This document shows positions 2,700-27,342 of a DNA stretch of 49,480 bases, piece by piece. The position numbers were made by a program, and so were the translations under genes. Under the pieces are notes generated by a model. It searched no databases. It was not told the DNA's origin and worked only from the letters and a program-made list of their open reading frames with translations. How positions within the stretch are numbered: the first letter of the stretch is position 1; each line of letters begins with the position of its first letter. This DNA is from a virus. Lineage: Duplodnaviria; Caudoviricetes. The stretch lies in IMG/VR virus record IMGVR_UViG_3300030376_002587, positions 1 to 49,480 of that record. One strand, 5' to 3'.

Positions 2700-3110
2700 A
2701 TGTTTAGTTCTATCATAGGTCCAATAAGTTCTCTTGCTGGAACATGGTTACAAGGCAAAGTAGACAAAGCTAAAGCAGAAACCGATATAAAGGTAGCTAA
2801 AGCACAAGCAGAAGCAGAAGTATATCGTACCGAAGCAACATCTGAAATGCTTATGGAAAAAGAATTAACTTCACAAATGGGTGATAGTTTAAAGGATGAA
2901 TTTTGGACTTTTGTGTTTGGAGCAATACTTATCTGTTGTTTCTTGCCGTGGACACAGCCTTATGTAAAAGATGGTTTTGTGTTCCTAGACCAGAATTGTC
3001 CATCTTGGTTCTCTAACATGCTTTATATCGTGATTGGGAGTGCATTTGGAATGAGGTTTGGAAAACAAGGTCTGCAAATTTTAAAATCAAGAAATGCCAA
3101 AACTAAGTAA
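2700..3110 (+). CDS. Putative holin (GTA 3TM-holin-like)
   Basis: N-terminal amphipathic helix, coiled coil, S(L/W)KDEFW, two C-terminal TMs ending FGMR. SD AAGGAG. Confidence 0.6.
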   Translation: MFSSIIGPISSLAGTWLQGKVDKAKAETDIKVAKAQAEAEVYRTEATSEMLMEKELTSQMGDSLKDEFWTFVFGAILICCFLPWTQPYVKDGFVFLDQNCPSWFSNMLYIVIGSAFGMRFGKQGLQILKSRNAKTK

Positions 3111-3336
3111 TAAACAAAATTTAAGATTTGGAGGTTTGGTTGCTGTATTAAGTGGCAGAGAGCCTTATGATAGTATTTTTGAAGATTTGAAAGAACAAGG
3201 ATTTGTAGGCAAGAGCCACAATGGTGTTTATCTCACACAAAAAGGAATGAATGAAAAAGACAGATTAGCAACTCTTGCTGGTTTGATGGTAGAAAAAGAT
3301 AGAGCCTATGCCCTTAAATCTAAGAAAGACCAATAA
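3094..3336 (+). CDS. Hypothetical protein (possible winged helix)
   Basis: L-x-EQGFV...VYLTQKG pattern. Confidence 0.5.
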   Translation: MPKLSNKQNLRFGGLVAVLSGREPYDSIFEDLKEQGFVGKSHNGVYLTQKGMNEKDRLATLAGLMVEKDRAYALKSKKDQ

Positions 3337-3502
3337 ATTCAGTTGGAAGTATACAACTGTTTGTATCTGTCCACAAATCTCTATCCCAAGTATTACATCC
3401 AAGCATTAAATTTAACATAATGAATATAAATAAATAAGAAATAAAAATTATTGTCATCATAATTGACAAATTTTTAAGAAATATCTTGGTTCTTAACATC
3501 AT
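3320..3502 (-). CDS. Hypothetical membrane protein
   Basis: SD AAGGAG; TM helix followed by a Cys pair. Confidence 0.6.
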   Translation of the reverse strand: MMLRTKIFLKNLSIMMTIIFISYLFIFIMLNLMLGCNTWDRDLWTDTNSCILPTEFIGLS

Positions 3503-3641
3503 CTAACTCCTTAACAAAAATTTGATAGTAAATAGCATTTATAATTTCTCTAAAACTTTCTTGATTGTAATGTGAAATATCAATTTCCATAACAAGTGTT
3601 TTAAATCTTTCTAAATTTTCAATTGTTAGTTTTTTGTTCAT
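3474..3641 (-). CDS. Small hypothetical protein (55 aa, MNKKLTIENLERFK...)
   Basis: Not in the ORF track; fills the gap in the minus-strand operon. Confidence 0.45.
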   Translation of the reverse strand: MNKKLTIENLERFKTLVMEIDISHYNQESFREIINAIYYQIFVKELDDVKNQDIS

Positions 3642-3813
3642 TCTTTTCTCGCATCATAAAATCACACAACATAGCAACTCGAGGGGATATTTTTTTAGTT
3701 CCCTTCTCAAGTTGACATATCATACTTCTAGTTGCATACCCAAGTCTTTCGGCAAATTGTGCTTGGGTATATCCTAGTTTATTCCGAACTTTTTGAAATT
3801 CATTCGGTTGCAT
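3619..3813 (-). CDS. XRE/Cro-family HTH transcriptional regulator
   Basis: VRNKLGYTQAQFAERLG...ICQLEKG pattern. Confidence 0.85.
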   Translation of the reverse strand: MQPNEFQKVRNKLGYTQAQFAERLGYATRSMICQLEKGTKKISPRVAMLCDFMMREKNEQKTNN

Positions 3814-4072
3814 TGTTTTTTTCCGTAAAATAAGCATCTCCATCTCGTATCTTTGATTGTAGTGGTTCAATGATGGTTGCATTTATATCGTCAAGTTTAT
3901 CTACAATGTCCTCAAGTGTGTCATCATAATAAGCAAGTGCACCTTGATTGATGTATTTAGAAATTTGCATACAACTATCATTAATTTTAGTTTTGATGTC
4001 TAGCATGATATTTTCATCATTCATTACATCGTCTTTGCATCCCTCTAGGATATATTTATTTGTTTCTGGCAT
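3800..4072 (-). CDS. Hypothetical protein
   Basis: SD GGAGG, directly downstream of a promoter. Confidence 0.65.
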   Translation of the reverse strand: MPETNKYILEGCKDDVMNDENIMLDIKTKINDSCMQISKYINQGALAYYDDTLEDIVDKLDDINATIIEPLQSKIRDGDAYFTEKNNATE

Positions 4073-4099
4073 ATCGCCCTCCATGTTGTTTATGAGTAT

Positions 4100-4128
4100 A
4101 TATTAACATAATGTTTACTAATGTCAAC
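4100..4128 (-). promoter_or_regulatory. sigma70-like early promoter (repeat family)
   Basis: gTTGACA tta GTAAAC attatgt TAATAT (16-bp spacer). Confidence 0.6.
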
Positions 4129-4327
4129 TATTATTAACAATTTTTTCTAAAAATAATTTATCAACTGGGAAAATAGTTTTATTAAAGTCCTTTTTTTTCT
4201 CGTTATATCTATGAACATAAACATGAACATTATGTATTTCAGCAATTCTGCATCGTCTACCAGTTTTATTTAAATGTTGTTTTGGTGTAAATGGAATGAT
4301 TACTTCAAGTCCTTTTTGTAGTTTCAT
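4124..4327 (-). CDS. Hypothetical protein
   Basis: ATGA overlap with the upstream gene. Confidence 0.55.
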   Translation of the reverse strand: MKLQKGLEVIIPFTPKQHLNKTGRRCRIAEIHNVHVYVHRYNEKKKDFNKTIFPVDKLFLEKIVNNS

Positions 4328-4767
4328 TTTCTTTTTACCTCATAATCTCTATTATAAAAATCATCATAAAAATACAAACATAGTTTTCTGTGATAATGAT
4401 GTTCAGACTCTGGCAAACAAGTATAATAGTTTCGCATAAAATCTTTAATGCCTCTGTCGTATAATTCGCATAAAACAAAATCTAAATAATCTTTGTTAGT
4501 TTTAGTCATGTGATTATTATTTTTATATTGTCTTAATATTGCTAATAAACATTCTTGCAAAACATCATAGTATTTATATTTTTCATTTGGGTATTCTTTT
4601 ATTTTTTGTTCTATAAAATTACCTAATTCATGAAGTATTTTACTTTCCTTGTTAGCAAAAGTTTTAATCTTCAAACCAACATCTTCTAAAGCATCTTCAC
4701 TACAATGTGGTCTTTCATCTCTGGTAAAATTAAATTCCATCCAATTATAAATTAATTTATTTTTCAT
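4324..4767 (-). CDS. Hypothetical protein
   Basis: TAATG coupling to the hydrolase gene. Confidence 0.65.
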   Translation of the reverse strand: MKNKLIYNWMEFNFTRDERPHCSEDALEDVGLKIKTFANKESKILHELGNFIEQKIKEYPNEKYKYYDVLQECLLAILRQYKNNNHMTKTNKDYLDFVLCELYDRGIKDFMRNYYTCLPESEHHYHRKLCLYFYDDFYNRDYEVKRK

Positions 4768-5204
4768 TACTCCATCTCCCATCTATAAAAACAATGAGCA
4801 TTAATACAAATTGTCGGTGTCATTGTGTTTGCCCATGATGGATAGACATAGTTAGCATGATAATGTGTAGCACCTTCAGAAAGGTCAATATAAAGACTTT
4901 CATGAATAACAGCATAAGAAATAGTTTTCGCCCATTCATATGCTTGAGTATCAGTTATAATTTCATCCTTTCCATCACAGTAAAAACTGAAGGCACATTT
5001 ATGTTTAACCATTATGTCAGTTCCTTTGTATCTCAATCCATCAGTTACGACTTCACATACAGTATTTGGAAATCTCCAATCGTTAACACGATTTCTAATT
5101 ACTTGAGCAACAGCAATTTTTCCAGCATCTGGTTCTCCTCTTGCTTCAAAGTAAATCGCATTGGCCATACAGACCAATGCAGTTGCAGTTTCTAAAAGAG
5201 CCAT
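4767..5204 (-). CDS. Cell wall hydrolase, SleB/Hydrolase_2 family
   Basis: [35 protein letters not shown], [14 protein letters not shown]. Confidence 0.9.
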
Positions 5205-5644
5205 TAGTAATTCTCCTCTTCTTCATCTTTCCAATTATTGTAGAATTTTAATTGACCATTAGCATCCATGTTTTTATCAGTAAATTCTTTGATGTCTTTG
5301 ATAAAATAAACTTCTTCTTCAAGAGTTTCGATTGTTATATCCGTGCCTATTGTTTCTCCTTGTTCATCAGCACAAAGTAACAAAGCCTTACCCCCAAGAG
5401 GTGTTGGATAATGTGGTCCCCAAAAACCTTTTGTATTTCGTAAGGCAAAGAATTTTTGATTTGCTTTGAATACACCTTCGTCATCCACATATAATCCGTC
5501 TTTAGGAAAATTAGTTTTTTCATATCGTGTAACAGTTGCAACATCAAAATGGTCTGCATCAATAAGGTTTAAAATATCTGATGAGTTATTAAAATCAATT
5601 TCTGTAAATGATTTAATATGTGGGTCAATCAATATTGCTCTCAT
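5204..5644 (-). CDS. Hypothetical protein (DUF3846-like)
   Basis: MRAILIDP...LYVDDEG...PLGGKALL pattern. Confidence 0.55.
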
Positions 5645-5847
5645 TTTTTCTCTCCCACAAGTACATATTCAGCAAATGTTTTTTTGTTTTTGGTTACGTA
5701 ATTTGTATTTATTTCATAATCAAATCGCAATCTGTGAATTACAGCAGATAATCTAAAGCATCCAAATAATTCTAATGCTTCTAATGGTGTTATAGTTTGT
5801 CCTTTTTTAAGGTGTTCTAAAATTCTGATGTCTTGAGTTTTTTCCAT
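5641..5847 (-). CDS. Winged-HTH DNA-binding protein
   Basis: ILEHLKKGQTITPLEALELFGCFRLSAVIHRLR; SD GGAGG. Confidence 0.8.
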   Translation of the reverse strand: MEKTQDIRILEHLKKGQTITPLEALELFGCFRLSAVIHRLRFDYEINTNYVTKNKKTFAEYVLVGEKK

Positions 5848-5856
5848 GTTGACCTC

Positions 5857-6036
5857 CTATATGTTAGCAGAATTTTGAGTTTGAAAATTAAGAACAGCAA
5901 TATCTTCTTTGAGTTCTTGTATTACAGATGGTGGAAGTATATGTTTCTTTTCCATCTTTTCTATCTTGTTTTGTAGTTCTACAATTAAGATATTAGCAAT
6001 TTCACATTTATTAATTAATTTTTGATTTCTAGTCAT
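5857..6036 (-). CDS. Small hypothetical protein (59 aa, MTRNQKLINKCEIA...)
   Basis: Directly downstream of the promoter at 6068-6096, with an AACAACAAC leader. Confidence 0.55.
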   Translation of the reverse strand: MTRNQKLINKCEIANILIVELQNKIEKMEKKHILPPSVIQELKEDIAVLNFQTQNSANI

Positions 6037-6067
6037 TTTTTTTCTTTCTTGTTGTTGTTATAATTAT

Positions 6068-6097
6068 AATATAATATATCTGTTCACCTGTGTCAAC
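6068..6097 (-). promoter_or_regulatory. sigma70-like early promoter
   Basis: gTTGACA cag GTGAAC agatatat TATATT (17-bp spacer). Confidence 0.7.
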
Positions 6098-6104
6098 ACA
6101 TAAG

Positions 6105-6227
6105 TTAAATTTTTTTCCAAATACATAAATCTCTTTTAAGATTTCTGAAGTATTTTTTAATTTCCCAAAAAGTACCCCAATAAAATTCTGAATTAATTTC
6201 TAAAATCATTTCATCTAATCTATTCAT
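6105..6227 (-). CDS. Small hypothetical protein (40 aa, MNRLDEMILEINSEFYWGTFW...)
   Basis: GGGAAAAC leader behind the promoter at 6255-6283. Confidence 0.5.
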   Translation of the reverse strand: MNRLDEMILEINSEFYWGTFWEIKKYFRNLKRDLCIWKKI

Positions 6228-6254
6228 TTTGTTTTCCCATGTAGTTGTTAATTA

Positions 6255-6284
6255 ATAGTAACATACTTGTTCACCATTGTAAAC
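6255..6284 (-). promoter_or_regulatory. sigma70-like early promoter
   Basis: gTTTACA atg GTGAAC aagtatgt TACTAT (17-bp spacer). Confidence 0.7.
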
Positions 6285-6345
6285 AATAAAAACAACAAAA
6301 ATGAACTTTTTTTTTAAAAATATTTAAATTAATTTAAAATTAGTT

Positions 6346-6375
6346 GTTGACAATAGTAAACTTATGTGATACTAT
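6346..6375 (+). promoter_or_regulatory. sigma70-like early promoter (divergent pair)
   Basis: gTTGACA ata GTAAAC ttatgtga TACTAT (17-bp spacer). Confidence 0.75.
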
Positions 6376-6411
6376 TAATAATAATAAAAATTTAACAACA
6401 AGGGAAAATCT

Positions 6412-6642
6412 ATGAAATATGATTATCAAAAAAAATATTCAGAATATTCAAATTCTGATTTAATTAGATTTCATAATAATGCAAGAATTACTTATTATGG
6501 ATGTATCGGACATTTTAAATCTCAACAAAATGAGGGCAGAATGTCCATGATTGCAAGAGAACTCAAAAATCGAGGAATTACAGAAATTCCAGAATTAAAA
6601 GAGGAGGGCGAAATTGGATACAATGGAGATGGTGCTTATTAA
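6412..6642 (+). CDS. Hypothetical early protein
   Basis: AACAACAAGGGAAAA leader. Confidence 0.7.
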   Translation: MKYDYQKKYSEYSNSDLIRFHNNARITYYGCIGHFKSQQNEGRMSMIARELKNRGITEIPELKEEGEIGYNGDGAY

Positions 6643-6698
6643 TTATTGATAATAATAACCATTGTGATATGATGCCTTCAACAACACATGGAGGCATT

Positions 6699-7322
6699 AT
6701 GTCATTTACTGCACTTGCATGGGTATCTAACCAATCATGCAAAAACTCAATCAATAAATTAATTCTTTACTTGTTGGCTAATTATGCCAATGAGAAAAAT
6801 GAAACTTATCCATCATACAAACATTTGGCAAAACTAGCAGAATGTTCAGAAAGAACTGCAATGAGGTCTGTTAATGAACTTATTGCATTGGGATTAATCA
6901 CAAAAGAAAAACGATTTACTGATGATGGAAAACAAACAAGTAATAAATTCATTCTAAACATTAGGGGTGTCAAAAACAACACTGAGGGGGTGTCAAAACA
7001 AACACCCAATACTATAAGAGATATACAAAATAATAATAGTAGTATTGTGGATAATGGGGATAATGTTCTATTTGACCAATGGTGGAAAGAATATCCAAGA
7101 AAAGATGGTTCTAAAAAGAATGCTTTACAATCATTTATAAAATTAAAATCAGAAATTAGTTTTAATGATTTAATGATAAAGACTAAAATATTTGCACATC
7201 AACAAAAAAATACTGAAAAAAGATTTATTCCTCATGCAACTACATTTTTAAATCAAAAAAGATTTGAAACTGTTGAAAATGTTGATACTATGAAATCCAA
7301 CAAAAATAACCTTGCTGGGTAA
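6699..7322 (+). CDS. Replication initiator protein (N-terminal HTH_36-like, lambda-O-like organisation)
   Basis: KLILYLLANYAN...YPSYKHLAKLAECSERTAMRSV, QTSNKF, FDQWWKEYPRK, PHATTFLNQKRF; SD GGAGG. Confidence 0.8.
   Translation: MSFTALAWVSNQSCKNSINKLILYLLANYANEKNETYPSYKHLAKLAECSERTAMRSVNELIALGLITKEKRFTDDGKQTSNKFILNIRGVKNNTEGVSKQTPNTIRDIQNNNSSIVDNGDNVLFDQWWKEYPRKDGSKKNALQSFIKLKSEISFNDLMIKTKIFAHQQKNTEKRFIPHATTFLNQKRFETVENVDTMKSNKNNLAG
6964..7006. repeat. Iteron-like direct repeats, probable replication origin
   Basis: GGGGTGTCAAAA at 6964 and 6987 (23-bp period), each an imperfect palindrome, inside the initiator gene and followed by AT-rich DNA. Confidence 0.6.
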
Positions 7323-7326
7323 CAAC

Positions 7327-9087
7327 ATGAAAAATTTATCAGATTATGGTATCAAATTAAGATACAATTCCGTAGGAAATCAAAAATTAACTTGTCCTCA
7401 ATGTTCACATACACGAAAAAATAAACATGACCTTTGTTTATCCGTAACTGTAAATCAAGATGGTTCATCAGTTTGGAAATGTCATAATTGTGAATGGACT
7501 GGTGGAATAAATAATGAAAACAAAAATTATAATAAAAATTTTAAAATTGTTCCAAAACCATTAAAAAAACCAGACAATATGGATAAACCATATAAATTTT
7601 TTCAAGACAGAGGAATAAGCAACAAAACTGTTGATGATTTTAATATATATGAAAAATTGTTTTACTTTGGGGATGGCAATAAAAAATCAATTGTTTTTCC
7701 ATACTATGAAGATGAAATATTAGTTAATAATAAATATAGAAGTTATGATAAAGAATTTCGTCAAGAGAAAGATGCTAAAAGAACTTTATTCAATATTGAT
7801 AGAGTTAAAAAATATTGGTCTGAAAATAACAAGTTTGTCTTATTTGTTGAGGGCGAAATGGATGCCTTATCATTTTATGAATGTGGCATTGAATATGTTA
7901 CATCGTTGCCAGATGGTGCACCTAAAGAAGCAAAATTTGTAAAAGACGATAAAAGATTTCAAGCCTTAAATAATGCACAATGGTTACATCAAGCAGAAAG
8001 AATTATAATTGCTGTTGACTCTGATGATGCTGGTAATGCTTTGCATTTGGAATTAGTTCATAGATTTGGAAAAGATAAATGTTGGGTTATAGATTGGTCA
8101 GATTATTCTGGTTTTCATGATATAGAAATTAAAGATGCCAATGAATATTTGATGGCACATGGAAAAGATGCACTTCTTGAAATCGTAACTAAATATGTAA
8201 AACCATATCCAGTAGATGGAATTTTTACTGCAAAAGATTATACAACAGAAGTAAAGAATATTTATAATGGTAATATATCAAGACCAGTTTCAACAGGGTT
8301 TAAAAATCTTGATGCAATATATAAAGTAATGCCATCCACATTTACATTGGTTACTGGTGTTCCCAATCATGGTAAATCAAATTTTCTTGACCAACTTTTA
8401 ATTAATTTAAGTCAACAACATAAATGGAAATTTTTGATATTTTCACCAGAACATTCAACAGCAAATCATATAAGAAGGTTATCAGAAAAGATAATAAATA
8501 AACCATTTGATATTGGTCCAAATGAAAGAATGAGTAAAGATGATTTGCAAAGAGCAATGGATTTTCTTGATGATAAATTTTATTTTATAGAGAGCAAAGA
8601 AAATATACCAAATATTGAATGGATATTAAACAGGGCAAAACAAGCTTGTTTTAAATATGGAATAAATGGAATTGTTGTTGACCCATATAATGAGATTGAC
8701 TCAACTAGAAATACTAACAAAAGAGAAGATGAGCATATAAGAGATTTAATTGCACATTGTAAAAAATTTGCAAGAACACATGAAGTAGCTTTTTGGATGG
8801 TAGCACACCCATCAAAGATGCAACGAACACAAGAAGGAGTTATCCCAGTTCCAACTCTTTATGATGTTAGTGGTTCTGCACATTGGAATAATATGAGTGA
8901 TGTTGGTCTTGTTGTTCATAGAGATTTTGAAACTAATCAAACTAGGATTATAACTAGAAAAGTAAGAGAACAAGGATTGTATGGACATATAGGTGAATGT
9001 TTTTTTAAATATGATTTATCAACTCATACATATAAGGAAGATAGAACAATAGAGACTTCGCAAGATTATTATTGGCAACAAGATTAA
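7327..9087 (+). CDS. Bifunctional primase-helicase (T7 gp4/Twinkle-like)
   Basis: Zn finger CPQC...CHNC, TOPRIM FVEGEMD/DSDDAG/KDANE, Walker A GVPNHGKS, Walker B IVVD, VAHP, SGSAHW. Confidence 0.92.
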   Translation: MKNLSDYGIKLRYNSVGNQKLTCPQCSHTRKNKHDLCLSVTVNQDGSSVWKCHNCEWTGGINNENKNYNKNFKIVPKPLKKPDNMDKPYKFFQDRGISNKTVDDFNIYEKLFYFGDGNKKSIVFPYYEDEILVNNKYRSYDKEFRQEKDAKRTLFNIDRVKKYWSENNKFVLFVEGEMDALSFYECGIEYVTSLPDGAPKEAKFVKDDKRFQALNNAQWLHQAERIIIAVDSDDAGNALHLELVHRFGKDKCWVIDWSDYSGFHDIEIKDANEYLMAHGKDALLEIVTKYVKPYPVDGIFTAKDYTTEVKNIYNGNISRPVSTGFKNLDAIYKVMPSTFTLVTGVPNHGKSNFLDQLLINLSQQHKWKFLIFSPEHSTANHIRRLSEKIINKPFDIGPNERMSKDDLQRAMDFLDDKFYFIESKENIPNIEWILNRAKQACFKYGINGIVVDPYNEIDSTRNTNKREDEHIRDLIAHCKKFARTHEVAFWMVAHPSKMQRTQEGVIPVPTLYDVSGSAHWNNMSDVGLVVHRDFETNQTRIITRKVREQGLYGHIGECFFKYDLSTHTYKEDRTIETSQDYYWQQD

Positions 9088-9100
9088 AATAATATATAGT
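9072..9100 (+). promoter_or_regulatory. sigma70-like promoter for a small RNA
   Basis: TTGGCA-17-TATAGT; predicted +1 near 9107. Confidence 0.5.
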
Positions 9101-9106
9101 ATATTT

Positions 9107-9182
9107 AACCAAAGTGATTTGGTTTTCATGTTGTTGTTAAAGGGGGGTAACATTTATTTAATTAGGTGTTACCCTTTTTTTT
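9107..9182 (+). ncRNA. Putative antisense sRNA (~76 nt)
   Basis: 5' hairpin AACCAAA-GTGA-TTTGGTT, single-stranded TTCATGTTGTTGTT, then a terminator. Confidence 0.5.
9145..9182 (+). terminator. Rho-independent terminator
   Basis: 12-bp stem GGGTAACATTTA/TAGGTGTTACCC followed by T8. Confidence 0.8.
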
Positions 9183-9257
9183 AGGGGATATAACATACAT
9201 GGAAGTATGTTTTCATGCCTCTAGTGGTCTTTAAAACAAGATTTATTTAGGTATTTT

Positions 9258-9902
9258 ATGTCAAATTACAGTATTGAGCAATTATATGACTTTATAGCAC
9301 CAGAATATGAAAGTCTGCGAAATGAACCAATTAACTATGTAGAAGATGAAATTATATCCAATATGCTTTCAGTTCTAGGTGGTAAGAAAGTTCTTGATGT
9401 TGGATGTGGTACTGGCAATCTAATTACACTTGGTCAATATGAACCAGAACAATATCTTGGTATTGATATAAGTGCAAACATGATTAAAGAAGCAAAAAGA
9501 TTTTATCCAAATTATAATTTTAAAAAACATGATGCTAGAGAAAAGATAAAAGGTAAATATGATTTGATAGTTTCTATATTTGGGCAAATCAATTATTTTG
9601 GTATTGATGAATGGTTAAATATTATAAAAAGAAATCTTAGTAAGAATGGTAATTTTTATTCAATAATGTATAGCAATACATATAAACCAAATTATGTAAA
9701 TGGTCATGCAATACAATATTCCGTTGATGACATAAAGGGAAAACTAGAGCATCTTGGAATATTGCATCGCATTGTTGGTCTGTCTTTCTCGTCTGATAGT
9801 GGGAAAACATTTAGACAAGAGTTACAATTCCAACAGACCATCATGGAACTTAATCAAACAATCGGTTGTCGATATTGGGTAATTTTGGGGAAGAATGTTT
9901 AA
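9258..9902 (+). CDS. Class I SAM-dependent methyltransferase
   Basis: YDFIAPEY, VLDVGCGTG, GIDISANM, YDLIVS. No DPPY/NPPY or PC DNA-MTase motif. Confidence 0.85.
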   Translation: MSNYSIEQLYDFIAPEYESLRNEPINYVEDEIISNMLSVLGGKKVLDVGCGTGNLITLGQYEPEQYLGIDISANMIKEAKRFYPNYNFKKHDAREKIKGKYDLIVSIFGQINYFGIDEWLNIIKRNLSKNGNFYSIMYSNTYKPNYVNGHAIQYSVDDIKGKLEHLGILHRIVGLSFSSDSGKTFRQELQFQQTIMELNQTIGCRYWVILGKNV

Positions 9903-10338
9903 ATCTTTGTGGCACTCTCCCATTTCCAGTATCGTGATTATAAGAATGTTCCAATGCCTCAGTTAGATAATTCATATCTAAACCGAAGTCCTTGTATCCT
10001 TGTTTAATGACATTATAGTACATTTCCATAGGTGGATTTATATTATAACTATTCATTTTATAGGATAGCATTCTTTCATTACTTGGTGTTTTAAAATATA
10101 TCTTTCCATAGAGAGTTGGATAACCCTCGTATCTATCTAATGCTTCTTCACAATCATCAGTTATTTTCCAAATGCCTACAGGCACAGATGAATTAGCATC
10201 TTCTATAATATCAGCAACCCCTTTGAAAACAAGTTTCCATCCTTTTAAATTTAATGTTCCATAAGGTTTTGCTTTTGGACATCTAAGTTGCATTTGTTCA
10301 ATATTGAGATTGCTCCCATATCCTAAATAAAGTTTCAT
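9850..10338 (-). CDS. Gamma-glutamylcyclotransferase (GGCT/AIG2-like)
   Basis: YLGYGSNLN, RCPKA, ALDRYEGYP...Y. Confidence 0.88.
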   Translation of the reverse strand: MKLYLGYGSNLNIEQMQLRCPKAKPYGTLNLKGWKLVFKGVADIIEDANSSVPVGIWKITDDCEEALDRYEGYPTLYGKIYFKTPSNERMLSYKMNSYNINPPMEMYYNVIKQGYKDFGLDMNYLTEALEHSYNHDTGNGRVPQRFKHSSPKLPNIDNRLFD

Positions 10339-11381
10339 ATTGTTGTCCTCCCTTCAAGAGTTGCAAAGTGATTGTGTCTATCTACAAGATAGGTTCTAGT
10401 TGGAGTATCTATCCCTGAGTAAAAATTCTCTGGTTCTTGGTTCTCCAAATTGAAAGTTGAATTATAAAAAAGTACAAAATCAGAATTTAAAACAAATTCT
10501 TCACTCTTTATGTATTGTCCATGAAAATAAAAATTAGTTAATTCTTCAGAAGTTTTTGTAAATTGTAATTCATTATTCTCATTCAAGAAATTCCATTTTT
10601 GTCCGCCAGAGTATTTAACATTCCATCCTTTTTTAGCAAATAACATTTTGATTTCCCCAAAAGAATTAGAAGTATTTTTTCTATGGGTTTTTCTAATGTC
10701 AGAAGTTCTGTCATTGTTAATAGTCTCATTTACAAATCCTACAAGAAATGAAAGCCAATTTAAAATCTTTGTGTGGTCCATTGTACCAGAGTGTTGTCTA
10801 AATTCTAAAGTTCCATATTTTCTCAAACTCTCAAGATTTATTTTCTTATATCTAGTCCTTAACAATGACCACATTCCTCTCAAACTTCCATCATAATTAT
10901 TGACTCTTCTTACATCATTTCTTGAAATTTCAAGGCAATACATATTATTGCTATCTCTTCTTGATATAGGCATAATCAAATCAATATCATTTTTATAGTC
11001 AAAATATCTTTGAAAAATCTTTTTGATTTGTTCTGTAGTCATTCCATCCCATTTAAGATGAATATGAAGTCCACAAGTTCTGTTAACTTCTATATTTTGC
11101 ATTCTGTTAAGTGATTGACAAATTCTAGTAATTTGGTCAAAAACATTTTCTTGATTTAAAATTGGTGATACAAGTTCTGCACCATTTGTTGAACCATCTC
11201 TCACAATTTTCCAATAAGGAGTTGTATTATGAGTATATCCAACATCATTAAATTCAATATCAGTAATTTCATTTCTTAAATGATTAAGAACATTTTGATT
11301 TGACTCTCTGACAGTTTCAATTTCAATTCCAATTGTCATTCCTAAATCTTCAATTATGTTTTTAATATTTAAATTTTCCAT
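10335..11381 (-). CDS. Putative amidoligase (Amidoligase_2, COOH-NH2 ligase)
   Basis: GIEIE, KIVRDGS, ELVSPIL, CGLHIH, RYKKIN, GTLEFRQHSGT. Confidence 0.88.
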   Translation of the reverse strand: MENLNIKNIIEDLGMTIGIEIETVRESNQNVLNHLRNEITDIEFNDVGYTHNTTPYWKIVRDGSTNGAELVSPILNQENVFDQITRICQSLNRMQNIEVNRTCGLHIHLKWDGMTTEQIKKIFQRYFDYKNDIDLIMPISRRDSNNMYCLEISRNDVRRVNNYDGSLRGMWSLLRTRYKKINLESLRKYGTLEFRQHSGTMDHTKILNWLSFLVGFVNETINNDRTSDIRKTHRKNTSNSFGEIKMLFAKKGWNVKYSGGQKWNFLNENNELQFTKTSEELTNFYFHGQYIKSEEFVLNSDFVLFYNSTFNLENQEPENFYSGIDTPTRTYLVDRHNHFATLEGRTTI

Positions 11382-11414
11382 TTTTTTGTTTTCCCTAAAT
11401 CTTTATTATGATTA

Positions 11415-11444
11415 ACAGTAACATAATAATTTACTCTTGTAAAC
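11415..11444 (-). promoter_or_regulatory. sigma70-like early promoter
   Basis: gTTTACA aga GTAAAT tattatgt TACTGT (17-bp spacer); GGGAAAAC leader. Confidence 0.65.
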
Positions 11445-11506
11445 ATCTTTTTTAAAAAAAAACAACTATTTATCTATATTATTGATTTTATTGAAAAAAA
11501 ATATGT

Positions 11507-11536
11507 GTTGACAATGGGAAACATAAGTGATACTAT
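11507..11536 (+). promoter_or_regulatory. sigma70-like early promoter (divergent pair)
   Basis: gTTGACA atg GGAAAC ataagtga TACTAT (17-bp spacer). Confidence 0.75.
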
Positions 11537-11569
11537 AAGAAATAATTAATTTTTTTGGAGAACAACAAC

Positions 11570-12145
11570 ATGGATAAAAAAGAAAAAAAATTAATCAAAA
11601 GAATTGATATGGCACTTCATGTTCAAGAACTTTGTGCTGAACATAAAATTACTGTTGACTATCAATCTTTAGATGAAAATGTACCTAGATACATGGCTAA
11701 TATAAATGCAAAAAGAATTCGCATAAGACCTACAAAAAATACAGGTTATTATGTTTCTGCTCTGCATGAGATTGGTCATGTTGTTTGTCAAAACAGAAGC
11801 AAACTAATCAATGGGTCATATATTTATGATTTGAATAATGACTCAAATGATGAAGATATGACTTTATCATATACAGCAAATGCTAATTCAAGAATAGAAT
11901 GTGAATTACAAGCATGGATTTATGCTTTCTCAAATGCTCTTACATGGACAACAACTGCTGAAAGAATAATGAGAAGAGCAATGGACTCTTATGGATGGAG
12001 ACAACCACATAAAGACTTGTGGAGCCAATTGACAGGCATTCCATTTGAAGAGGGAGAGATTGCAATTGCTGAAGAGGTAAATATTCTTCAACAATCTATA
12101 AGCCATGAAAAAGAAACTTCTAAAAGGATATTGGCTTATGGATAA
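11570..12145 (+). CDS. Putative zincin metallopeptidase (ImmA/IrrE-like HExxH)
   Basis: ALHEIGH plus downstream ExQAW; SD GGAG. Confidence 0.6.
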   Translation: MDKKEKKLIKRIDMALHVQELCAEHKITVDYQSLDENVPRYMANINAKRIRIRPTKNTGYYVSALHEIGHVVCQNRSKLINGSYIYDLNNDSNDEDMTLSYTANANSRIECELQAWIYAFSNALTWTTTAERIMRRAMDSYGWRQPHKDLWSQLTGIPFEEGEIAIAEEVNILQQSISHEKETSKRILAYG

Positions 12146-13391
12146 TATATTATTTGCAAATCAAGTTCTTGCTGGATTATCTAATCCGGCAAGGGGTCTT
12201 GTTGCCTTCTGTACAAAAAGGAGAGCTGGTAATCGAGATAGTAATTCAAATGCAGAAATGTCAAGAAGAAAAAATATGCGAGATATTGCTGATGCTCAAA
12301 AATTTTATGTCGATAGAGAACTTGTAAAAACTGCTGTTCAATTATCATTTTCAAAACCAAAAGAATTTATTGAATTAGTACAAAGAGCAAAACCATGTTT
12401 CAATAATCTCTGGTTAGAATGGGATGAAGAATATAGAGTTGATTGTTTGAAAGAAGAAGTATTGAAAACACTTGACCCAAAATATCATGAAATAATTGAC
12501 CCATCAAATAACAAGATGGAAAAAATTGGTTATCATATTCAACAACTACATGGCAAACCATTCTATACAATGTATGGTGCTGATAGAAAATTTGAACATA
12601 ACAAAATCTATATATCAAGAACTGGATTTTATTTTACCAATGATGAACATTTATTATCAGACGAATTTAAAGAAAGAGTTGATTATGACAGAAATAACCC
12701 ATCTTGGTTAACTGAAGATAGATACAAAATAATTGGTAAGATGATGGGTAAATCCTATGTTGCTCATTATTTTAATTCATTAGGTTTGTTTGAGGAATAT
12801 GTAAGTAGAACCCTTTATGACAAAGTTACTAAAATTCCAAATGAATTACTTACATCAAAAGACAATTTGGATTTGAAAAGGGTCATGGATTTTTGCTTGG
12901 ATAGATTTGAAACTGCTCAATCAATAGGGCAAGAAATGTTTTTGACAGATAAACAATTTGCCACAGGGTATGATTTCCATGAAATGTCAACAATTGTTGA
13001 TGGAGAAACAACTGCAATGGACGGAGATTTGAGATTTCTTGTTTGTGTTTTAGGATTACTAAATTATGACCACATCAAATACAATGATGCCAAGACAAGT
13101 CCAAAGATAAGACATTTAAGATATGGTGTTCAAGCACCTAAACATTCTTACAAACTTATCACAATTGATTTACCTCATAACATCAGAAAAGTTTACAAAG
13201 GAATAACTACAGGTATGGGAAGTCCAAAGGCTGAACACATGAGAAGAGGACATTGGAGATTAACTAAATACAAAGATGGTACGACCAAGAGAATTTGGAT
13301 TAAACCAATGAAGGTTGGGAATAAAGAATTTGGAACTATTGAACACGATTATATTTTAAGAGGTAGAAAAAGAGATAAATTGTTGACATAA
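12138..13391 (+). CDS. Conserved phage protein of unknown function
   Basis: C-terminal H-x-RRGHWR...IWIKP..VG motif typical of phage hypotheticals. Confidence 0.7.
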   Translation: MDNILFANQVLAGLSNPARGLVAFCTKRRAGNRDSNSNAEMSRRKNMRDIADAQKFYVDRELVKTAVQLSFSKPKEFIELVQRAKPCFNNLWLEWDEEYRVDCLKEEVLKTLDPKYHEIIDPSNNKMEKIGYHIQQLHGKPFYTMYGADRKFEHNKIYISRTGFYFTNDEHLLSDEFKERVDYDRNNPSWLTEDRYKIIGKMMGKSYVAHYFNSLGLFEEYVSRTLYDKVTKIPNELLTSKDNLDLKRVMDFCLDRFETAQSIGQEMFLTDKQFATGYDFHEMSTIVDGETTAMDGDLRFLVCVLGLLNYDHIKYNDAKTSPKIRHLRYGVQAPKHSYKLITIDLPHNIRKVYKGITTGMGSPKAEHMRRGHWRLTKYKDGTTKRIWIKPMKVGNKEFGTIEHDYILRGRKRDKLLT

Positions 13392-13411
13392 GTAAACAGA
13401 CATGATACAAA
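13382..13411 (+). promoter_or_regulatory. sigma70-like early promoter
   Basis: gTTGACA taa GTAAAC agacatga TACAAA (17-bp spacer). Confidence 0.6.
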
Positions 13412-13429
13412 TAATAATAAACAACAACT

Positions 13430-13666
13430 ATGAAAGATAAAAAAATGAAACTAAATTATGTAGAAAAATTAGATAAAATTTTGTCAGATTGTGGATATGT
13501 TCACACTTATGCAGAAGTATCTGGTCTTGAAGAAGTATACATTATTCAAAAAGATGGCACTTGTATTTTCAATGATTTTGTTTTGAATAAAGAAGAATAC
13601 AAAAGAGAAAGATTAAAACTTCTTGATATTTACAAATACAAAAAAGAACATACGAGGTATTTGTAA
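13430..13666 (+). CDS. Hypothetical protein
   Basis: AACAACAAC leader. Confidence 0.6.
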   Translation: MKDKKMKLNYVEKLDKILSDCGYVHTYAEVSGLEEVYIIQKDGTCIFNDFVLNKEEYKRERLKLLDIYKYKKEHTRYL

Positions 13667-14178
13667 TGAATAGATTTATCATTGAAAGAAACCCACGATT
13701 AATTGCTAAATCATTATGCGACCAACACATTGTAAAAATGCCAACAGAAGAAGCACAGATGTTGTGTACTACAATCTGGCATTATGCACCAGATTATGCA
13801 GAAGAACACAATCTATATAAACCAGTACATCAAAAACATCCATGTACTTTATGGGCAATGGAAAATGCTTCTAACTTCTATTTTGCTCATCAACTTTATG
13901 TTTGGATGTGTCAAGAGTATACTATTAGATACAATAAAATACATGGTGCAAGTAAACATTATGTTTCATTGTTTAATGCTATGAAATTTTTACCAGAAGG
14001 GGAACAAACTCAACACCCTCAATGTTTTGGCAAATATGAGATATTAAAGACTGAAGAGTTTTATCCTATCAATGCTTACAGAATGTTTTATGTGTATGAC
14101 AAAACATTTGCTAGATACAACAATGGTAGAGATAGACCAGAATGGTTTATTGATTGTTCTTCTTTGACCAAGCACTAG
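13666..14178 (+). CDS. Pyrimidine-dimer DNA glycosylase (DenV/endonuclease V)-like protein
   Basis: MNxF, DQHIVKMPxExAQML, HPCTLW, AYRxFY pattern. Confidence 0.65.
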   Translation: MNRFIIERNPRLIAKSLCDQHIVKMPTEEAQMLCTTIWHYAPDYAEEHNLYKPVHQKHPCTLWAMENASNFYFAHQLYVWMCQEYTIRYNKIHGASKHYVSLFNAMKFLPEGEQTQHPQCFGKYEILKTEEFYPINAYRMFYVYDKTFARYNNGRDRPEWFIDCSSLTKH

Positions 14179-14473
14179 TTGCCATAAATGTTGCAAGTAT
14201 ACCAAGATTTGCAACAACGAAGGTAGATATTAAAGAAGTACATAATTGAACTCTTGTATTTGGTATTATAGGACTTAGAACTAACAATATAACTCCTATA
14301 ACACTAATCATTGAAACCCATGCCATCATTCTGATTTGGTCATCTTTTTTATCATTATTTTCAAGACGAGTTAATCTTTCTGCTAATTCTAATTCATCAT
14401 CATCAACAATGCCATCATTGTTAAGGTCTAAATCATTATACTTTGATTTTGTTTGTAATTTTTTTTGTGTCAT
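14147..14473 (-). CDS. Membrane protein with EF-hand-like loop and 2 TM
   Basis: DLNNDGIVDDDE followed by two hydrophobic helices. Confidence 0.65.
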   Translation of the reverse strand: MTQKKLQTKSKYNDLDLNNDGIVDDDELELAERLTRLENNDKKDDQIRMMAWVSMISVIGVILLVLSPIIPNTRVQLCTSLISTFVVANLGILATFMATSAWSKKNNQ

Positions 14474-14769
14474 TTAAAACTGTCCTTTATACTTCTAATT
14501 ACATTTTTTAATGTAAATGGTTTTTCATTTGGTCTGTATTTACATTTTATTTGTCTTGGACATTCACCAGCACCAATTGGTACATATTCATTCCATTGAG
14601 TATAATTAGCACCAACATAAATACAAACCCTTGTTTTGTTTTCTAGTAATTGTTTAGCTAACCTACAAGTAGTATGCTCTTTATCTCTAGCAAAAGTTAC
14701 AATTGCTAAAAATGATATTACACAAAAGAAAATTAAAAAATAATAAATAATATTATAAAGCATAATCAT
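14470..14769 (-). CDS. Membrane-anchored Cys-containing hypothetical protein
   Basis: N-terminal TM; four downstream Cys. Confidence 0.65.
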   Translation of the reverse strand: MIMLYNIIYYFLIFFCVISFLAIVTFARDKEHTTCRLAKQLLENKTRVCIYVGANYTQWNEYVPIGAGECPRQIKCKYRPNEKPFTLKNVIRSIKDSFK

Positions 14770-15251
14770 TAACTAACACTCATGGTAATTAACCAAATCA
14801 TCCATCCAAGAGCACTTACACCCACAAGACAAGCTAATCCCATAATCGTATAATCTCTAATCATTCGTTTTTGCTCTGCTCTAGCATAAATTGCCTCTTG
14901 TCTTGCTTTTCTTATTCTGCCTTCTTCTCTTAACAAACCTTCCCAACCAGCAAGACCATAATGACCAACAATCCAGTTTTTAAGTTCTTCTCTTTGTTTC
15001 TGAACTTTTATTTTTGCACTATAACTTTTCATAGCAACTTCTTCGACAGAACCATTAAATAATTTGTCAAAGGTTGACGGATTACTAGAACTCTTATTTA
15101 TATTATCAATATCAGAAACAGCACCCATCCATTTACCAATGGTTTCAGACATTTCTTCAATATCTTTTCCATGTTGGATAAGTTTTTTTATTTGTGAATA
15201 TGTTTGACTAGCAACTGTAACAGCAGTGCCTAACGTAATTGGGTCTATCAT
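14769..15251 (-). CDS. Hypothetical membrane protein (C-terminal TM)
   Basis: MIDPIT start, coiled coil, TM; SD GAGG. Confidence 0.7.
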   Translation of the reverse strand: MIDPITLGTAVTVASQTYSQIKKLIQHGKDIEEMSETIGKWMGAVSDIDNINKSSSNPSTFDKLFNGSVEEVAMKSYSAKIKVQKQREELKNWIVGHYGLAGWEGLLREEGRIRKARQEAIYARAEQKRMIRDYTIMGLACLVGVSALGWMIWLITMSVS

Positions 15252-15281
15252 AATCCTCTCTATGACAACCCATCTGGGTTA

Positions 15282-15617
15282 TTAGTATACTTCTGTAATT
15301 ATTAAAGGTGGTTTATAAGTTTCTAAAATTTTCTTTTTTAATTTATAAACTGGTGTCCTTGTTGCTTTTGATTTTACATCTTCCAATATATAGGTATTTG
15401 TAGTTTTATCAAGATATTTAAAGTCGCCAATGTAATGTCCAATTTGTTTTCCATTGACTATTAATGGTATTCTAGGTTGGCATTCAAGTTGGTTTATAAC
15501 TCCGATTTTTTGCATTTGTTGAAGTTCTAAATATCTATTTGCTTCTTTTTTTGAATCAAAAGTTATATTATCTATTTTTGTTTTTACTGCATTGAATTTA
15601 TTATATTTTTTATACAT
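15282..15617 (-). CDS. DUF1064-family PD-(D/E)XK endonuclease
   Basis: FDSKKEANRY, YIGDF, EDVKS, YKLKKK. Confidence 0.85.
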   Translation of the reverse strand: MYKKYNKFNAVKTKIDNITFDSKKEANRYLELQQMQKIGVINQLECQPRIPLIVNGKQIGHYIGDFKYLDKTTNTYILEDVKSKATRTPVYKLKKKILETYKPPLIITEVY

Positions 15618-15625
15618 TTTTTTTA

Positions 15626-15654
15626 TTTACATTTATGAAATTGTATTATATAGT
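15626..15654 (+). promoter_or_regulatory. sigma70-like promoter of the recombination operon
   Basis: TTTACA-17-TATAGT, overlapping a GTAAAC. Confidence 0.55.
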
Positions 15655-15690
15655 AAACACAGAATGAACCTACGAGGTTGGAGATAAATT

Positions 15691-16479
15691 ATGAATACAT
15701 TTGAAAAACACAACATATCCTATTTATCCCCAAGTACCATAAATCTTTTCATATCTCAACCAGCATTATGTATGTTGAAATTTGCTGGTTATACAGATGA
15801 TGAGGTTGGGCCCCCAGCATGGAGGGGAACTGCTGTTGATAAAGCAGTTGGGAAAGGTGTTATTGAGGGATGGGAATTAGAACATTTAACAGAAGATGCA
15901 ACAACTTCTTTTTGGGATGAGTACTCAAAATATCCTCATGTAATTACACCAAAAATTGGAGAGAAAGCAGAAAAAGAAGCTAAATTAATACCACCTATGA
16001 TTAAGAATGCTATGGATTTTTACAAACCATTAGGGAACGTACAATCAATACAAGGCAAGATTAAAATGTTTTTTGATGATATAGAAGTTCCATTTATAGG
16101 ATATTATGATTTAGAATATGAGGACACTATCAGAGATACTAAAACTGTTTCAAGAACAATGTCTGGTATTGCAAATAGTGCTAAGAGACAAGTAGCTATA
16201 TATTCATTTGCCAAAAACAAAGAGGCATGGATTGATTATGTAACTGCAAAAGAGGTTCGGTCATTCAAATTAGAGAATGCTGAATACTGGTTAAAACAAG
16301 TAGAGATAGCATCACATTCAATAAAAAAAATACTGTCATTTTCAGATGACATATTAGAATGTTGTCAACTTGTTTACCCAGATTTAGACCATTGGATGTG
16401 GTCTAAAACCATGACCAACAATGCGAGAACTGTTTGGGATATGGACAATCCAAAATTAAATGCAACAACGGAGAGATAA
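15691..16479 (+). CDS. PD-(D/E)XK (Cas4/RecB-like) exonuclease
   Basis: LSPSTIN, RGTAV, GYYD, IRDTKT, QVAIY. Confidence 0.8.
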   Translation: MNTFEKHNISYLSPSTINLFISQPALCMLKFAGYTDDEVGPPAWRGTAVDKAVGKGVIEGWELEHLTEDATTSFWDEYSKYPHVITPKIGEKAEKEAKLIPPMIKNAMDFYKPLGNVQSIQGKIKMFFDDIEVPFIGYYDLEYEDTIRDTKTVSRTMSGIANSAKRQVAIYSFAKNKEAWIDYVTAKEVRSFKLENAEYWLKQVEIASHSIKKILSFSDDILECCQLVYPDLDHWMWSKTMTNNARTVWDMDNPKLNATTER

Positions 16480-17181
16480 ATGACTATAACTGTATTAAAA
16501 GCTATTGAGAAAGCTAGACCTAATTTTAAGGAACTCAAAAGGAGTGGAGAAAATTCATTCTTTAAATCAAATGGTGTTTCACATAGATATTCAACATTAA
16601 CGGATATTTTTGATGCTTGTTATTCTGCATTGCTAGCAGAAAATCTTACTATTGTTTATCAGATTAAAACTGATGGACATGAAAACAGAACTGATAATAT
16701 TATTGTAACTAAAATTGTTAATCTTGAAACTCAAGAAACATTGCAATCAGAGTCAACACTTGGAACTCACAATGTTAAAACTCAAGAGACAGGTTCTGCT
16801 ATTACATATTTGAGAAGATACCATTTACAATGTTTGCTTAATTTGGAAGCAGACTTTGAAGATGATGGTAATATTGCAAGTAAAAACAATTCAAAAGATA
16901 TTACTAAAATTGTTGATAAAGAAAGTCTTGTTATTGATTATGACTATCTTGGTTCACCATACAGAGTATTTGGAAAAGATGGAAACATGAAACAAACATT
17001 TACTGATGTTAAATCATGGGGATTACTTATCAAAACAATGCCAGAAAGAAATACAGAAGCAAATATAAAAGAAATTGCTAGGATTAAAAATGGTGTTGAG
17101 AATGACACAACAATGTCAGAAAAAGTAAAAGAAAATTTATTAAATTCAATTGGTCAACTAAATGGAGGTAATAATGGCTGA
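16480..17181 (+). CDS. erf: ERF-family ssDNA annealing protein
   Basis: YSTLTDI, GSAITYLRRY, EDDGN. Confidence 0.88.
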   Translation: MTITVLKAIEKARPNFKELKRSGENSFFKSNGVSHRYSTLTDIFDACYSALLAENLTIVYQIKTDGHENRTDNIIVTKIVNLETQETLQSESTLGTHNVKTQETGSAITYLRRYHLQCLLNLEADFEDDGNIASKNNSKDITKIVDKESLVIDYDYLGSPYRVFGKDGNMKQTFTDVKSWGLLIKTMPERNTEANIKEIARIKNGVENDTTMSEKVKENLLNSIGQLNGGNNG

Positions 17182-17515
17182 ATATGATAACACAAATAAA
17201 GGTGCTTTGTTTAATGCACATAATTGTAAAATTAAAGGACAAGGTGCTATACACATTGGTCAATCTCCGTCTGATTATGTCTTGGTAGAAGAACAGACAA
17301 AACATGGTCAAACATTTCTTAATCTTTATGTTAAATCAGCAAAGATTTTCAAAAACGAAAATAAAAGAAATGATGATGATGCTGATATGAGTGGTACAAT
17401 AGAAAGCCATTTAGGAGAGTTTAGGATATGGTTAAGAGAAAAGACAAGTAAGAATGGCAATCAATTTATTTCATGCTCTGTTGCCCCTAAAAAAGAGAAA
17501 GAAGGTGGTTTTTAA
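17174..17515 (+). CDS. Putative ssDNA-binding protein (DUF736-like)
   Basis: YDNTNKGALF...FKNENK...SG...W..TSKNG pattern; follows ERF; C-terminal Phe. Confidence 0.55.
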   Translation: MAEYDNTNKGALFNAHNCKIKGQGAIHIGQSPSDYVLVEEQTKHGQTFLNLYVKSAKIFKNENKRNDDDADMSGTIESHLGEFRIWLREKTSKNGNQFISCSVAPKKEKEGGF

Positions 17516-18149: not shown

Positions 18150-18161
18150 GAGAATAACAAC

Positions 18162-18380
18162 ATGAAAAAAATATTTATTGTCTTTTTACTTATAGGATGT
18201 TCAAGCGACCAAATCATTGTTGCTGATTTACGGATGTCAAAAGAAAAAGCACAACTCTTTCAAAGAGACCTACAAGAATGCAAAGAATTATCACAACAGG
18301 CAAAGAGTATATTTAAACCAAATGTTACAATCATGACTGAAAATTGTTTAGAGGGAAGAGGTCATTCTATAATTAAATAA
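18162..18380 (+). CDS. Putative lipoprotein
   Basis: MKKIFIVFLLIG-C lipobox. Confidence 0.7.
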   Translation: MKKIFIVFLLIGCSSDQIIVADLRMSKEKAQLFQRDLQECKELSQQAKSIFKPNVTIMTENCLEGRGHSIIK

Positions 18381-18408
18381 TTGACTAATAAAAATTGTAT
18401 GCTAATCT
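18381..18408 (+). promoter_or_regulatory. sigma70-like promoter for a small RNA
   Basis: TTGACT-16-TAATCT with extended -10 TG. Confidence 0.5.
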
Positions 18409-18414
18409 TATAAA

Positions 18415-18497
18415 ATAAAAACATACTCAAATTTCCTCCCAAGAAATGAGAATTACTTAACCCCCTTGTCTCGCATATGCAAGGGGGTCTTTTTTTT
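18415..18497 (+). ncRNA. Putative sRNA with anti-SD loop
   Basis: CTC-AA-ATTTC[CTCCCAA]GAAAT-GAG hairpin followed by a terminator; no ORF. Confidence 0.45.
18460..18497 (+). terminator. Rho-independent terminator
   Basis: ACCCCCTTG/CAAGGGGGT stem followed by a T-run. Confidence 0.8.
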
Positions 18498-18545: not shown

Positions 18546-18571
18546 ATAATTATAAACAAAGGGAAAACAAC

Positions 18572-18970
18572 ATGGAAAAATTACAAGGACAAAATATAGA
18601 TAAATTACCATTATGTGGAGTTTTATCTGTTTCGATTGCATCAAAAAAATCTTTATCTGAAACTTTTGACACATTTAAAAAATTAAACAAAAAAGCTAAT
18701 AATTGGAAAGGCAGAACAAATCACAAGGAGAGATTAAAAGTCTTAAAACATTATAAAGTAAAATGTAAAGATTTTAGACTTGGAAAAATAACTCTTAAAA
18801 ATTTTACAGACCAACATACTGTAAAGGGAAAAATCTATATGATTACAACAACAGGGCATATTCAAATTGTTCAAGATGGAATGATTACAGACCAAAGAGG
18901 AACAAAACCAATATCAGAATATTGGGGCAAAGATAAAAGATTAAATCATATTCAATTAGAAATAATTTAA
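18572..18970 (+). CDS. Hypothetical early protein (basic; Cys...TTGH, possible papain-like remnant)
   Basis: Promoter and leader support the 18572 start. Confidence 0.65.
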   Translation: MEKLQGQNIDKLPLCGVLSVSIASKKSLSETFDTFKKLNKKANNWKGRTNHKERLKVLKHYKVKCKDFRLGKITLKNFTDQHTVKGKIYMITTTGHIQIVQDGMITDQRGTKPISEYWGKDKRLNHIQLEII

Positions 18971-18971
18971 T

Positions 18972-26920: not shown

Positions 26921-27178
26921 TTATAATTGAAATGTTTCTTTTAAAATTTCATTTCTTTTTTTTTCAATTTCTTCTTTTCTGTCAAAATTCATTACAATTG
27001 ATTGCAAAACATCTTTTAAAAAATTATGACAAAATCTTTCATCTGTTATAATCCCATGTAAAAAATAATCTTTAACTCCATCAATATGTTCTTTTTCATA
27101 AAATGAAACTTTTGTAATTTGTTCTATTGTATTTTCTTGTAAAATTTTTACAAATTTATCTAAATTGGATAATTTCAT
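26921..27178 (-). CDS. Hypothetical early (moron) protein
   Basis: AAGGGAAAAC leader and its own promoter. Confidence 0.7.
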   Translation of the reverse strand: MKLSNLDKFVKILQENTIEQITKVSFYEKEHIDGVKDYFLHGIITDERFCHNFLKDVLQSIVMNFDRKEEIEKKRNEILKETFQL

Positions 27179-27213
27179 ATTGTTTTCCCTTATTAAAATT
27201 AAGTTATAATATT

Positions 27214-27314: not shown

Positions 27315-27342
27315 ATATATATAACAACAAGGGAAAACTAAA

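Follow-up and report, generated by a model that had tools for sequence, protein, structure and literature searches.

A predicted small RNA behind the primase-helicase gene of a marine phage, complementary to the starts of the phage's own early genes

The c4 RNA of phages P1 and P7 is processed from the operon that it controls, and its seeds and targets form type-specific pairs. In the excerpts of two articles, c4 (RF01695) is an antisense RNA that acts on the phage's own mRNA (PMC8198154, PMC2864571). OOP, sar, aQ, PreS, VpdS, StxS and the sRNA1 and sRNA2 of PAK_P3 are likewise small phage RNAs in developmental control; as given in excerpts of PMC12197685 and PMC4933390, these are cis-antisense to one gene, act on host RNA or with Hfq, or have no target shown, and the same excerpts name no phage sRNA with a tag common to many of the phage's own early genes. 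GcvB silences ACA enhancers, according to an extract of PMC3879156, and its R1 target consensus is CACAACA (PMC4104026, abridged text). The DapZ promoter sits before the dapB stop, while OppZ and CarZ autoregulate their parental operon (both from part of PMC9438474).

The window analysed here is the entire 49,480-base record of a virus (G000; 31.8% G+C), and the small RNA locus lies in it between a primase/helicase gene (7327-9087) and a methyltransferase gene (9258-9902). Like GcvB, as far as the excerpts describe it, the predicted RNA has a GU-rich single-stranded seed that faces CA-rich elements of many mRNAs, located at the Shine-Dalgarno sequence (SD) or upstream of it. In contrast to GcvB, it is encoded by a phage and about 76 nt long, its predicted targets are early genes of that phage itself, the seed of the window lineage contains an anti-AUG, and the seed varies between lineages. 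No Rfam family was reached at gathering by the small RNA; for GcvB this holds for the window and 16 relative loci, and at 8950-9350 there was no GcvB match at E<=10.

The placement resembles that of DapZ, with the promoter just ahead of the upstream stop codon and a common terminator (PMC9438474, PMC7821165, both in part). At the level of sequence, the locus has what marks a promoter-driven (type I) 3'-UTR sRNA, a conserved promoter where the upstream coding sequence ends and a common intrinsic terminator. DapZ (RF02551) gave the best sub-threshold Rfam match (24 bits, E 0.047; gathering 56), but the upstream gene is the primase-helicase instead of dapB, no ABC transporter is among the targets, and the stretch that resembles DapZ belongs to the variable loop. 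As with OppZ and CarZ, the phage RNA is predicted to target its own parental operon. Unlike c4, which controls one operon (icd-ant), it has about twelve scattered starts as targets; there was no Rfam c4 match and no icd or ant, the flanking genes being the primase/helicase and the methyltransferase.

A full-text literature search with few subscription papers returned no published multi-target self-directed phage sRNA. PMC10690425 lists 10,006 phage RNA candidates, and the cassette structure may be among these without a function. The predicted conserved family is apparently undescribed. Early-gene switch-off by phages has mostly been explained via proteins, and one RNA that co-varies with a dozen scattered targets is direct comparative evidence for control of a phage regulon at the RNA level. 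The family names its targets in advance, its natural orthogonal seed-tag pairs are usable for reporter swaps, and through the tags the early regulon of uncultured phages could be read from sequence alone.

The phage record and the small RNA locus

The right side of the record carries the terminase, portal, head and tail genes, and the left side the replication and accessory region. The sequencing runs of the samples themselves are labelled marine metagenome. Among GenBank phages the primase reached about 31% in the best rows and the cassette DNA had no match, and in single-protein scans with the amidoligase and with gene 12105 a 100% copy was the sole match. The amidoligase forms a pair with a gamma-glutamyl cyclotransferase gene at 9850-11381 (-); many relatives keep this pair close to the cassette, and it is usually tagged.

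As shown in Table 1, the predicted RNA is read from the plus strand. The promoter TTGGCA-17-TATAGT, proposed in a sequence-only reading of the window, was found at 9072-9100; by itself it is at chance level, with 119 such sites in the window and 122 in shuffles. The stretch 9107-9182 folds at -25.9 kcal/mol (z -4.74), which was matched by 0/200 shuffles; a 7-bp hairpin comes first, and an unpaired stretch separates it from a long hairpin with a U tail. Positions 9125-9138 of the seed are predicted to be 92% unpaired, as expected for the exposed segment followed by a terminator that had been proposed. The 7-bp hairpin was likewise confirmed, but its GNRA loop is not a feature of the RNA, because the loop differs in the relatives L103 and L104 (GUAA, GUCA).

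The terminator scan had no entry for the terminator at 9142-9182, which is backed by folding and covariation; we infer that it would also close the rep/primase-helicase operon. The idea of a stand-alone unit had to be given up in favour of a DapZ-like placement: the -35 falls in the last primase-helicase codons and the terminator is common to RNA and operon, so that the RNA may also be processed out of the mRNA. The hairpin with its U8 end fits Hfq binding, as judged from the predicted structure. Metatranscriptome contigs (three runs, assembled only) compared with 3000-14600 gave four pieces, all from one run, none of which covers the cassette. The minus strand of the cassette, 9127-9170 (-), aligns in register with the early promoter-leader 6238-6283 (-), except that a C-run replaces the -10; an inverted copy of a leader may have given rise to the RNA gene or remodelled it.

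Table 1. Predicted features of the small RNA locus, candidate target sites and early-type promoters in the window.
Feature	Position	Strand	Remarks
Promoter, predicted sigma70	9072..9100	+	-35 TTGGCA, 17 nt, -10 TATAGT
Small RNA, predicted, ~76 nt, 3'-end-of-operon type	9107..9182	+	Fold, model match
5' hairpin, 7 bp	9107..9124	+	Stem invariant, loop variable
GU-rich seed	9123..9141	+	Complementary to the tag of early leaders and to AUG
Intrinsic terminator hairpin with U-tract	9142..9182	+	Folding, covariation
Gene 4084/4072(-)	4078..4090	-	Sequence match, pairing, cofold
Leader of gene 6036(-)	6044..6060	-	Pairing, cofold; better match in L104
Leader of small ORF starting 6227(-) (alias 6232-)	6236..6251	-	Pairing, cofold, relatives
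Leader of gene 6412, which opens the replication operon	6391..6401	+	Seed pairing, cofold, relatives
Candidate site at or before SD of O-like replication initiator (start 6699)	6680..6694	+	CAUG out of frame
Primase-helicase start (parental operon)	7321..7333	+	L104 keeps the site with a G-U-compatible change
Gamma-glutamyl cyclotransferase-like gene start	10332..10346	-	One U-G pair; kept in L103/L104
Gene 11570 start	11561..11574	+	Sequence match, pairing, cofold, relatives
Gene 13430 start	13420..13436	+	One bulge; pairing, cofold, relatives
Small lipoprotein-like gene 18162 start	18156..18168	+	Sequence match, pairing, cofold
Gene 18572 start	18566..18578	+	Sequence match, pairing, cofold
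Gene 27178(-) start, weaker site	27173..27184	-	-12.9 seed pairing, -11.4 cofold
Leader of 42-codon ORF 27344, early-type promoter, head region	27322..27330	+	Pairing, cofold
Early-type promoters	4127-, 6096-, 6283-, 6347+, 11443-, 11508+, 13383+, 18518+, 27242-, 27286+		Several are divergent pairs

Target sites and early promoters

The segment 9123-9135 is the exact complement of both 7321-7333 and 18156-18168, and 9127-9138 is the exact complement of 11561-11572. All seed-start complementarities named in the sequence-only reading are present, that of gene 13430 with a bulge; its list of targets was right in what it held and incomplete, about twelve being found here. The motif AACAACATG is present eight times, five of them at gene starts, one in the seed itself and two antisense within genes, and the copies include those at 18566 and 4090(-). 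In the starts at 6699 and 6227-, and probably 4072-, it is the CAUG before the SD that the tag supplies, and not the likely start codon.

Start regions were curated by hand (86), and the pairing of each with a seed region of 21 nt was evaluated with a threshold of <= -15 kcal/mol. Twelve of the 86 reached it: eight of ten promoter-first genes, four of 38 others (the primase/helicase, the O-like initiator, the cyclotransferase-like gene and the lipoprotein-like gene) and 0/38 structural or packaging genes. The enrichment over shuffled seeds that the idea calls for was found, the observed pairing being reached by 0/400 plain seed shuffles (83 starts) and by 0/500 shuffles in which the anti-AUG CAT was kept fixed. 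When automatically called starts were used, 9/83 paired here versus 8/340 from 35 other AT-rich phage loci (p 0.002). As a natural control, 1499 CAT-containing 21-mers of the genome were sampled from 2063; the top-10 mean was reached by none of them (nearest -17.5 vs -17.7) and the count of 12 by 1/1499. Counting of exact 8-mers does not set the seed apart in a genome so rich in AT, where 433 of 95,062 windows tie with it, and counting of exact 9-mers leaves 22 windows at five places.

When the whole RNA was cofolded with the starts, 13 non-structural genes stood among the top 14. The cofold adds the Erf gene 16480 and lowers the initiator to -5.5 kcal/mol, against -18.1 for its seed duplex; the site at 6680-6694 is an uncertain target.

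Ten near-consensus promoters with short leaders were found, all ahead of non-structural genes. A GT(A/G)AACA motif lies in or beside nine of the ten, the small RNA promoter being without one; over the whole genome this motif is not enriched (19 vs 20). An HTH repressor-like gene at 3619-3837(-) is a candidate regulator for these promoters with their operator-like motif, and one may speculate that the RNA would stay on under a repressor that binds the motif, which its promoter lacks. An island (26921-27470) is inserted between the portal and head genes; a pair of early-type promoters diverges in it, and of its small ORFs 27178- and the 42-codon 27344+ are both tagged. In the methyltransferase leader at 9183-9257 (+), a hairpin lies close to the start region, and an upstream ORF of 11 codons (9199-9234) is preceded by an SD and by a poor match to the tag; translational coupling, or an additional target, is possible there.

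Conservation and seed-tag co-variation in relatives

When metagenomes were scanned with the C-terminal part of the primase, 80 loci were obtained (the best 80 of 141). L102 is near-identical to the window, and L103 and L104 have 90-91% protein identity and an identity of 0.68 at fourfold sites of the flanking genes. Conservation of the seed in relatives had been set beforehand as a test, and the seed is identical at 19/19 positions in L103/L104; at 0.68 this has P ~7e-4, for one sister lineage and thus a single contrast. The methyltransferase leader 9190-9257 is likewise well conserved in L103/L104, so that the seed does not stand out by conservation alone. The 5' stem is kept around the changed loop. 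In the promoter, the TATA is kept at 17 nt within a diverged spacer, with a weaker -10 (TATACA). Eight of the 14 terminator pairs differ between the window and L103, seven on one side and one on both, and all are paired on the plus strand; read on the minus strand, there are 5 mismatches in the window and 4 in L103. These pairs were assigned by structural register, as MAFFT misaligned the terminator. Orthologous leaders in L103/L104 carry substitutions and still pair at about -15 to -19 kcal/mol.

A cassette of like plan was seen by eye after the primase stop in 42 of the 80 loci, near-duplicate contigs included, and about half of the 80 are without a visible one. The plan consists of a promoter, a variable 5' hairpin, a GU-rich open stretch and a terminator, mostly 66-100 nt in all. 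Among 35 non-duplicate members, the sigma70-type promoter scored >=9 in 31 and >=10 in 23; the -35 lies in the last codons, at the stop codon or in the DNA downstream. A search model built from 19 members, all outside the lineage of the window, matches 34/80 loci at E <= 0.001, of which 19 are the training rows and three lie one gene further on; it misses classes E and G as well as L163, L166 and L173, and it matches 10/71 terminase-related loci. Its top match in the window is 9107-9182 with exact ends, a weak one (E 0.057). The window lineage is linked to the larger family by position, plan and a weak model match (E 0.057-0.34).

In IMG/VR, 22 of 23 matches to the pattern (11 distinct) lay within 1.1 kb behind a primase/helicase. 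Seed-pattern scans of IMG/VR recovered only the identical phage, the plan being absent in 19/20 and 27/28 other matches, and none of 61 matches to an early promoter-plus-tag pattern had the cassette of the window lineage. There was no cassette directly after the gene in the first primase relatives (L003-L009), nor in a seed-fixed screen of 78 loci; an open screen was needed to reveal the family. In L126, L127 and L128 the cassette stands one gene downstream (~7350-7680), following a gene insertion; the inserted gene ends in the codons that carry the -35 in the primase of relatives. L009 has at 5688-5777 a complement of that phage's GAGAAAAUG start motif followed by a G+C hairpin, which may be an analogous unit or merely a short minus-strand leader.

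The seed changes between lineages and the leaders change with it. The window lineage has the seed end CAUGUUGUU with the leader tag AACAACAUG; elsewhere, the seed end UUCGUGGUU goes with AACCACG leaders, UUUGUGGU with the tag ACCACAAA, UUUGUGUUG with CAACACAAA and GUUCGUUGUUG with GACAACGAAC. Co-variation was counted in 34 loci, after removal of eight near-duplicates and with the window restricted to 3000-19300. Perfect 8-nt matches between seed and leader occurred in 740/5366 pairs within a class (13.8%) versus 67/8302 across classes (0.8%). The classes, which were assigned visually, form clusters in a quick tree that needs 13 label changes, and kinship inflates the class B counts, so that the pairs are not independent and the real evidence is about five seed-tag types.

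At the primase leader, the own seed was better than every other-class seed in 28/33 loci, the exceptions being L118, L119, L150, L161 and L163. Class D seeds fail, with 2/126 own-class leaders matched and 4 nt at the primase leader. Among 468 leaders, 61 matches were in the sense orientation and 5 in the antisense. Departures compatible with G-U pairing are in excess (44/91), a figure confounded by transition bias.

A conserved loop, TTTGGTCG, occurs in terminator or inner loops of L105-L115, L121, L141 and L150-L161, and it is complementary to a GACCAA motif just ahead of start codons. Leaders showed 44 sense and 7 antisense matches to the loop word (of 251) where it is present, versus 8 and 8 (of 151) where it is absent. 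The loop of the window lineage is without this word. The word may be a second seed, and the TTTGGTCG loop may account for the failure of class D.

Proposed action and its alternatives

In the DNA and its comparison with relatives we observed the anatomy of the RNA, its complementarity to starts of non-structural genes, selection on the seed and on plus-strand structure, and co-variation of seed and tag. Antisense action in trans against a common early leader, as first suggested, gains support from target enrichment, strand bias, seed selection and co-variation, and pairing of the small RNA with the phage's own mRNAs is very probably functional. Since RNA and tag change together between lineages, the RNA likely turns early genes down by pairing. 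Its transcription would start at the sigma70 promoter that lies within the last part of the primase-helicase gene, with mRNA processing as a possible second source, and its seed would pair in trans with the CA-rich tag where ribosomes load on the mRNAs of about twelve early and replication genes. Pairing that covers the AUG, the SD or an ACA enhancer would repress translation. As the RNA would accumulate alongside the replication operon, itself a target, delayed negative feedback would follow; early protein synthesis would be damped and the head and tail mRNAs spared. This whole reading, of a trans-pairing phage sRNA that blocks translation of early and replication genes as a delayed negative feedback, is probable on the comparisons made here. 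We lean, with less assurance, towards a marine phage clade with a private RNA code, in which each lineage would have its leader tag and one complementary small RNA as a GcvB-like, self-directed master repressor with drifting specificity types.

The main alternative purpose is immunity or dormancy. The RNA and its pairing would be identical; made constitutively, the RNA would hold the early genes silent during a carrier or lysogenic state or act against a superinfecting relative, the seed-tag variants being immunity types like those of c4 in P1 and P7. The lineage-specific seed-tag pairs agree with this, as do the HTH repressor-like gene at 3619-3837 and the RNA promoter without the GT(A/G)AACA motif of most early promoters. 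However, no integrase was found among the 85 proteins scanned, one scan of GTDB genomes gave no prophage copy (its two distant matches giving no host clue), and the RNA promoter is located within the replication operon. We consider this purpose unlikely.

That the tag is a protein site, for a translation enhancer, antitermination or binding to DNA, is quite unlikely. The cassette would then be a terminator with an inverted tag, or would pair only in cis with the 5' end of its own mRNA. ACA motifs alone enhance translation (excerpt of PMC3879156), and the minus strand of the cassette aligns with the early promoter-leader 6283(-) as an inverted copy would. Yet an idle inverted copy would neither stay 19/19 nor follow the changes of the tag across lineages, and a sponge would bear the sense tag; moreover, the targets are on other transcripts and both strands, and a promoter of its own accompanies the RNA family-wide.

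The complementarity of the seed to the GcvB R1 target consensus CACAACA (PMC4104026, in part) and the action of the phage sRNAs PreS and VpdS on host RNAs (PMC12197685, in part) would agree with host mRNAs with CA-rich leaders as the main targets, in a GcvB-like seizure of the transport or metabolism of the host, the phage leaders being a by-product or second role. This is very unlikely, as the seed changes together with the phage's own tags and the starts of other marine phages are unmatched.

Finally, the motif could begin a translated minus-strand ORF of 36 hydrophobic codons (9129-9019) with the tag before its AUG, encoding a membrane protein or a type I toxin with the plus-strand RNA as its cis antitoxin, but this reading, foreseen as a possible refuter, was not upheld and is itself largely refuted and extremely improbable on comparative grounds: a 1-nt insertion in L103/L104 shifts the frame into an unrelated 23-codon ORF, so that the hydrophobic ORF opposite the RNA is not conserved, there is no SD and none of the strong promoter sites listed is on the minus strand here, no Pfam (E<=1) or PHROG match was obtained, and the anti-AUG is absent from most family seeds.

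Some further elements of the record were observed. Strong G+C hairpins in intergenic DNA at 2559-2610 (a double hairpin) and 18460-18497 are likely terminators. ParB-like, glucosyltransferase-like and PAPS-reductase-like genes ahead of the terminase (19307-22679) form a probable DNA modification cluster. A hairpin of the late operon at 30920-30985 (+), after the gene that follows the major head gene, is a weak match to the model (E 1.2). Its loop arm is GTTTTCCC, the complement of the ribosome-site motif GGGAAAAC found at the early genes 6238-, 11395-, 18561, 27189- and 27331, and the hairpin is a possible second antisense element.
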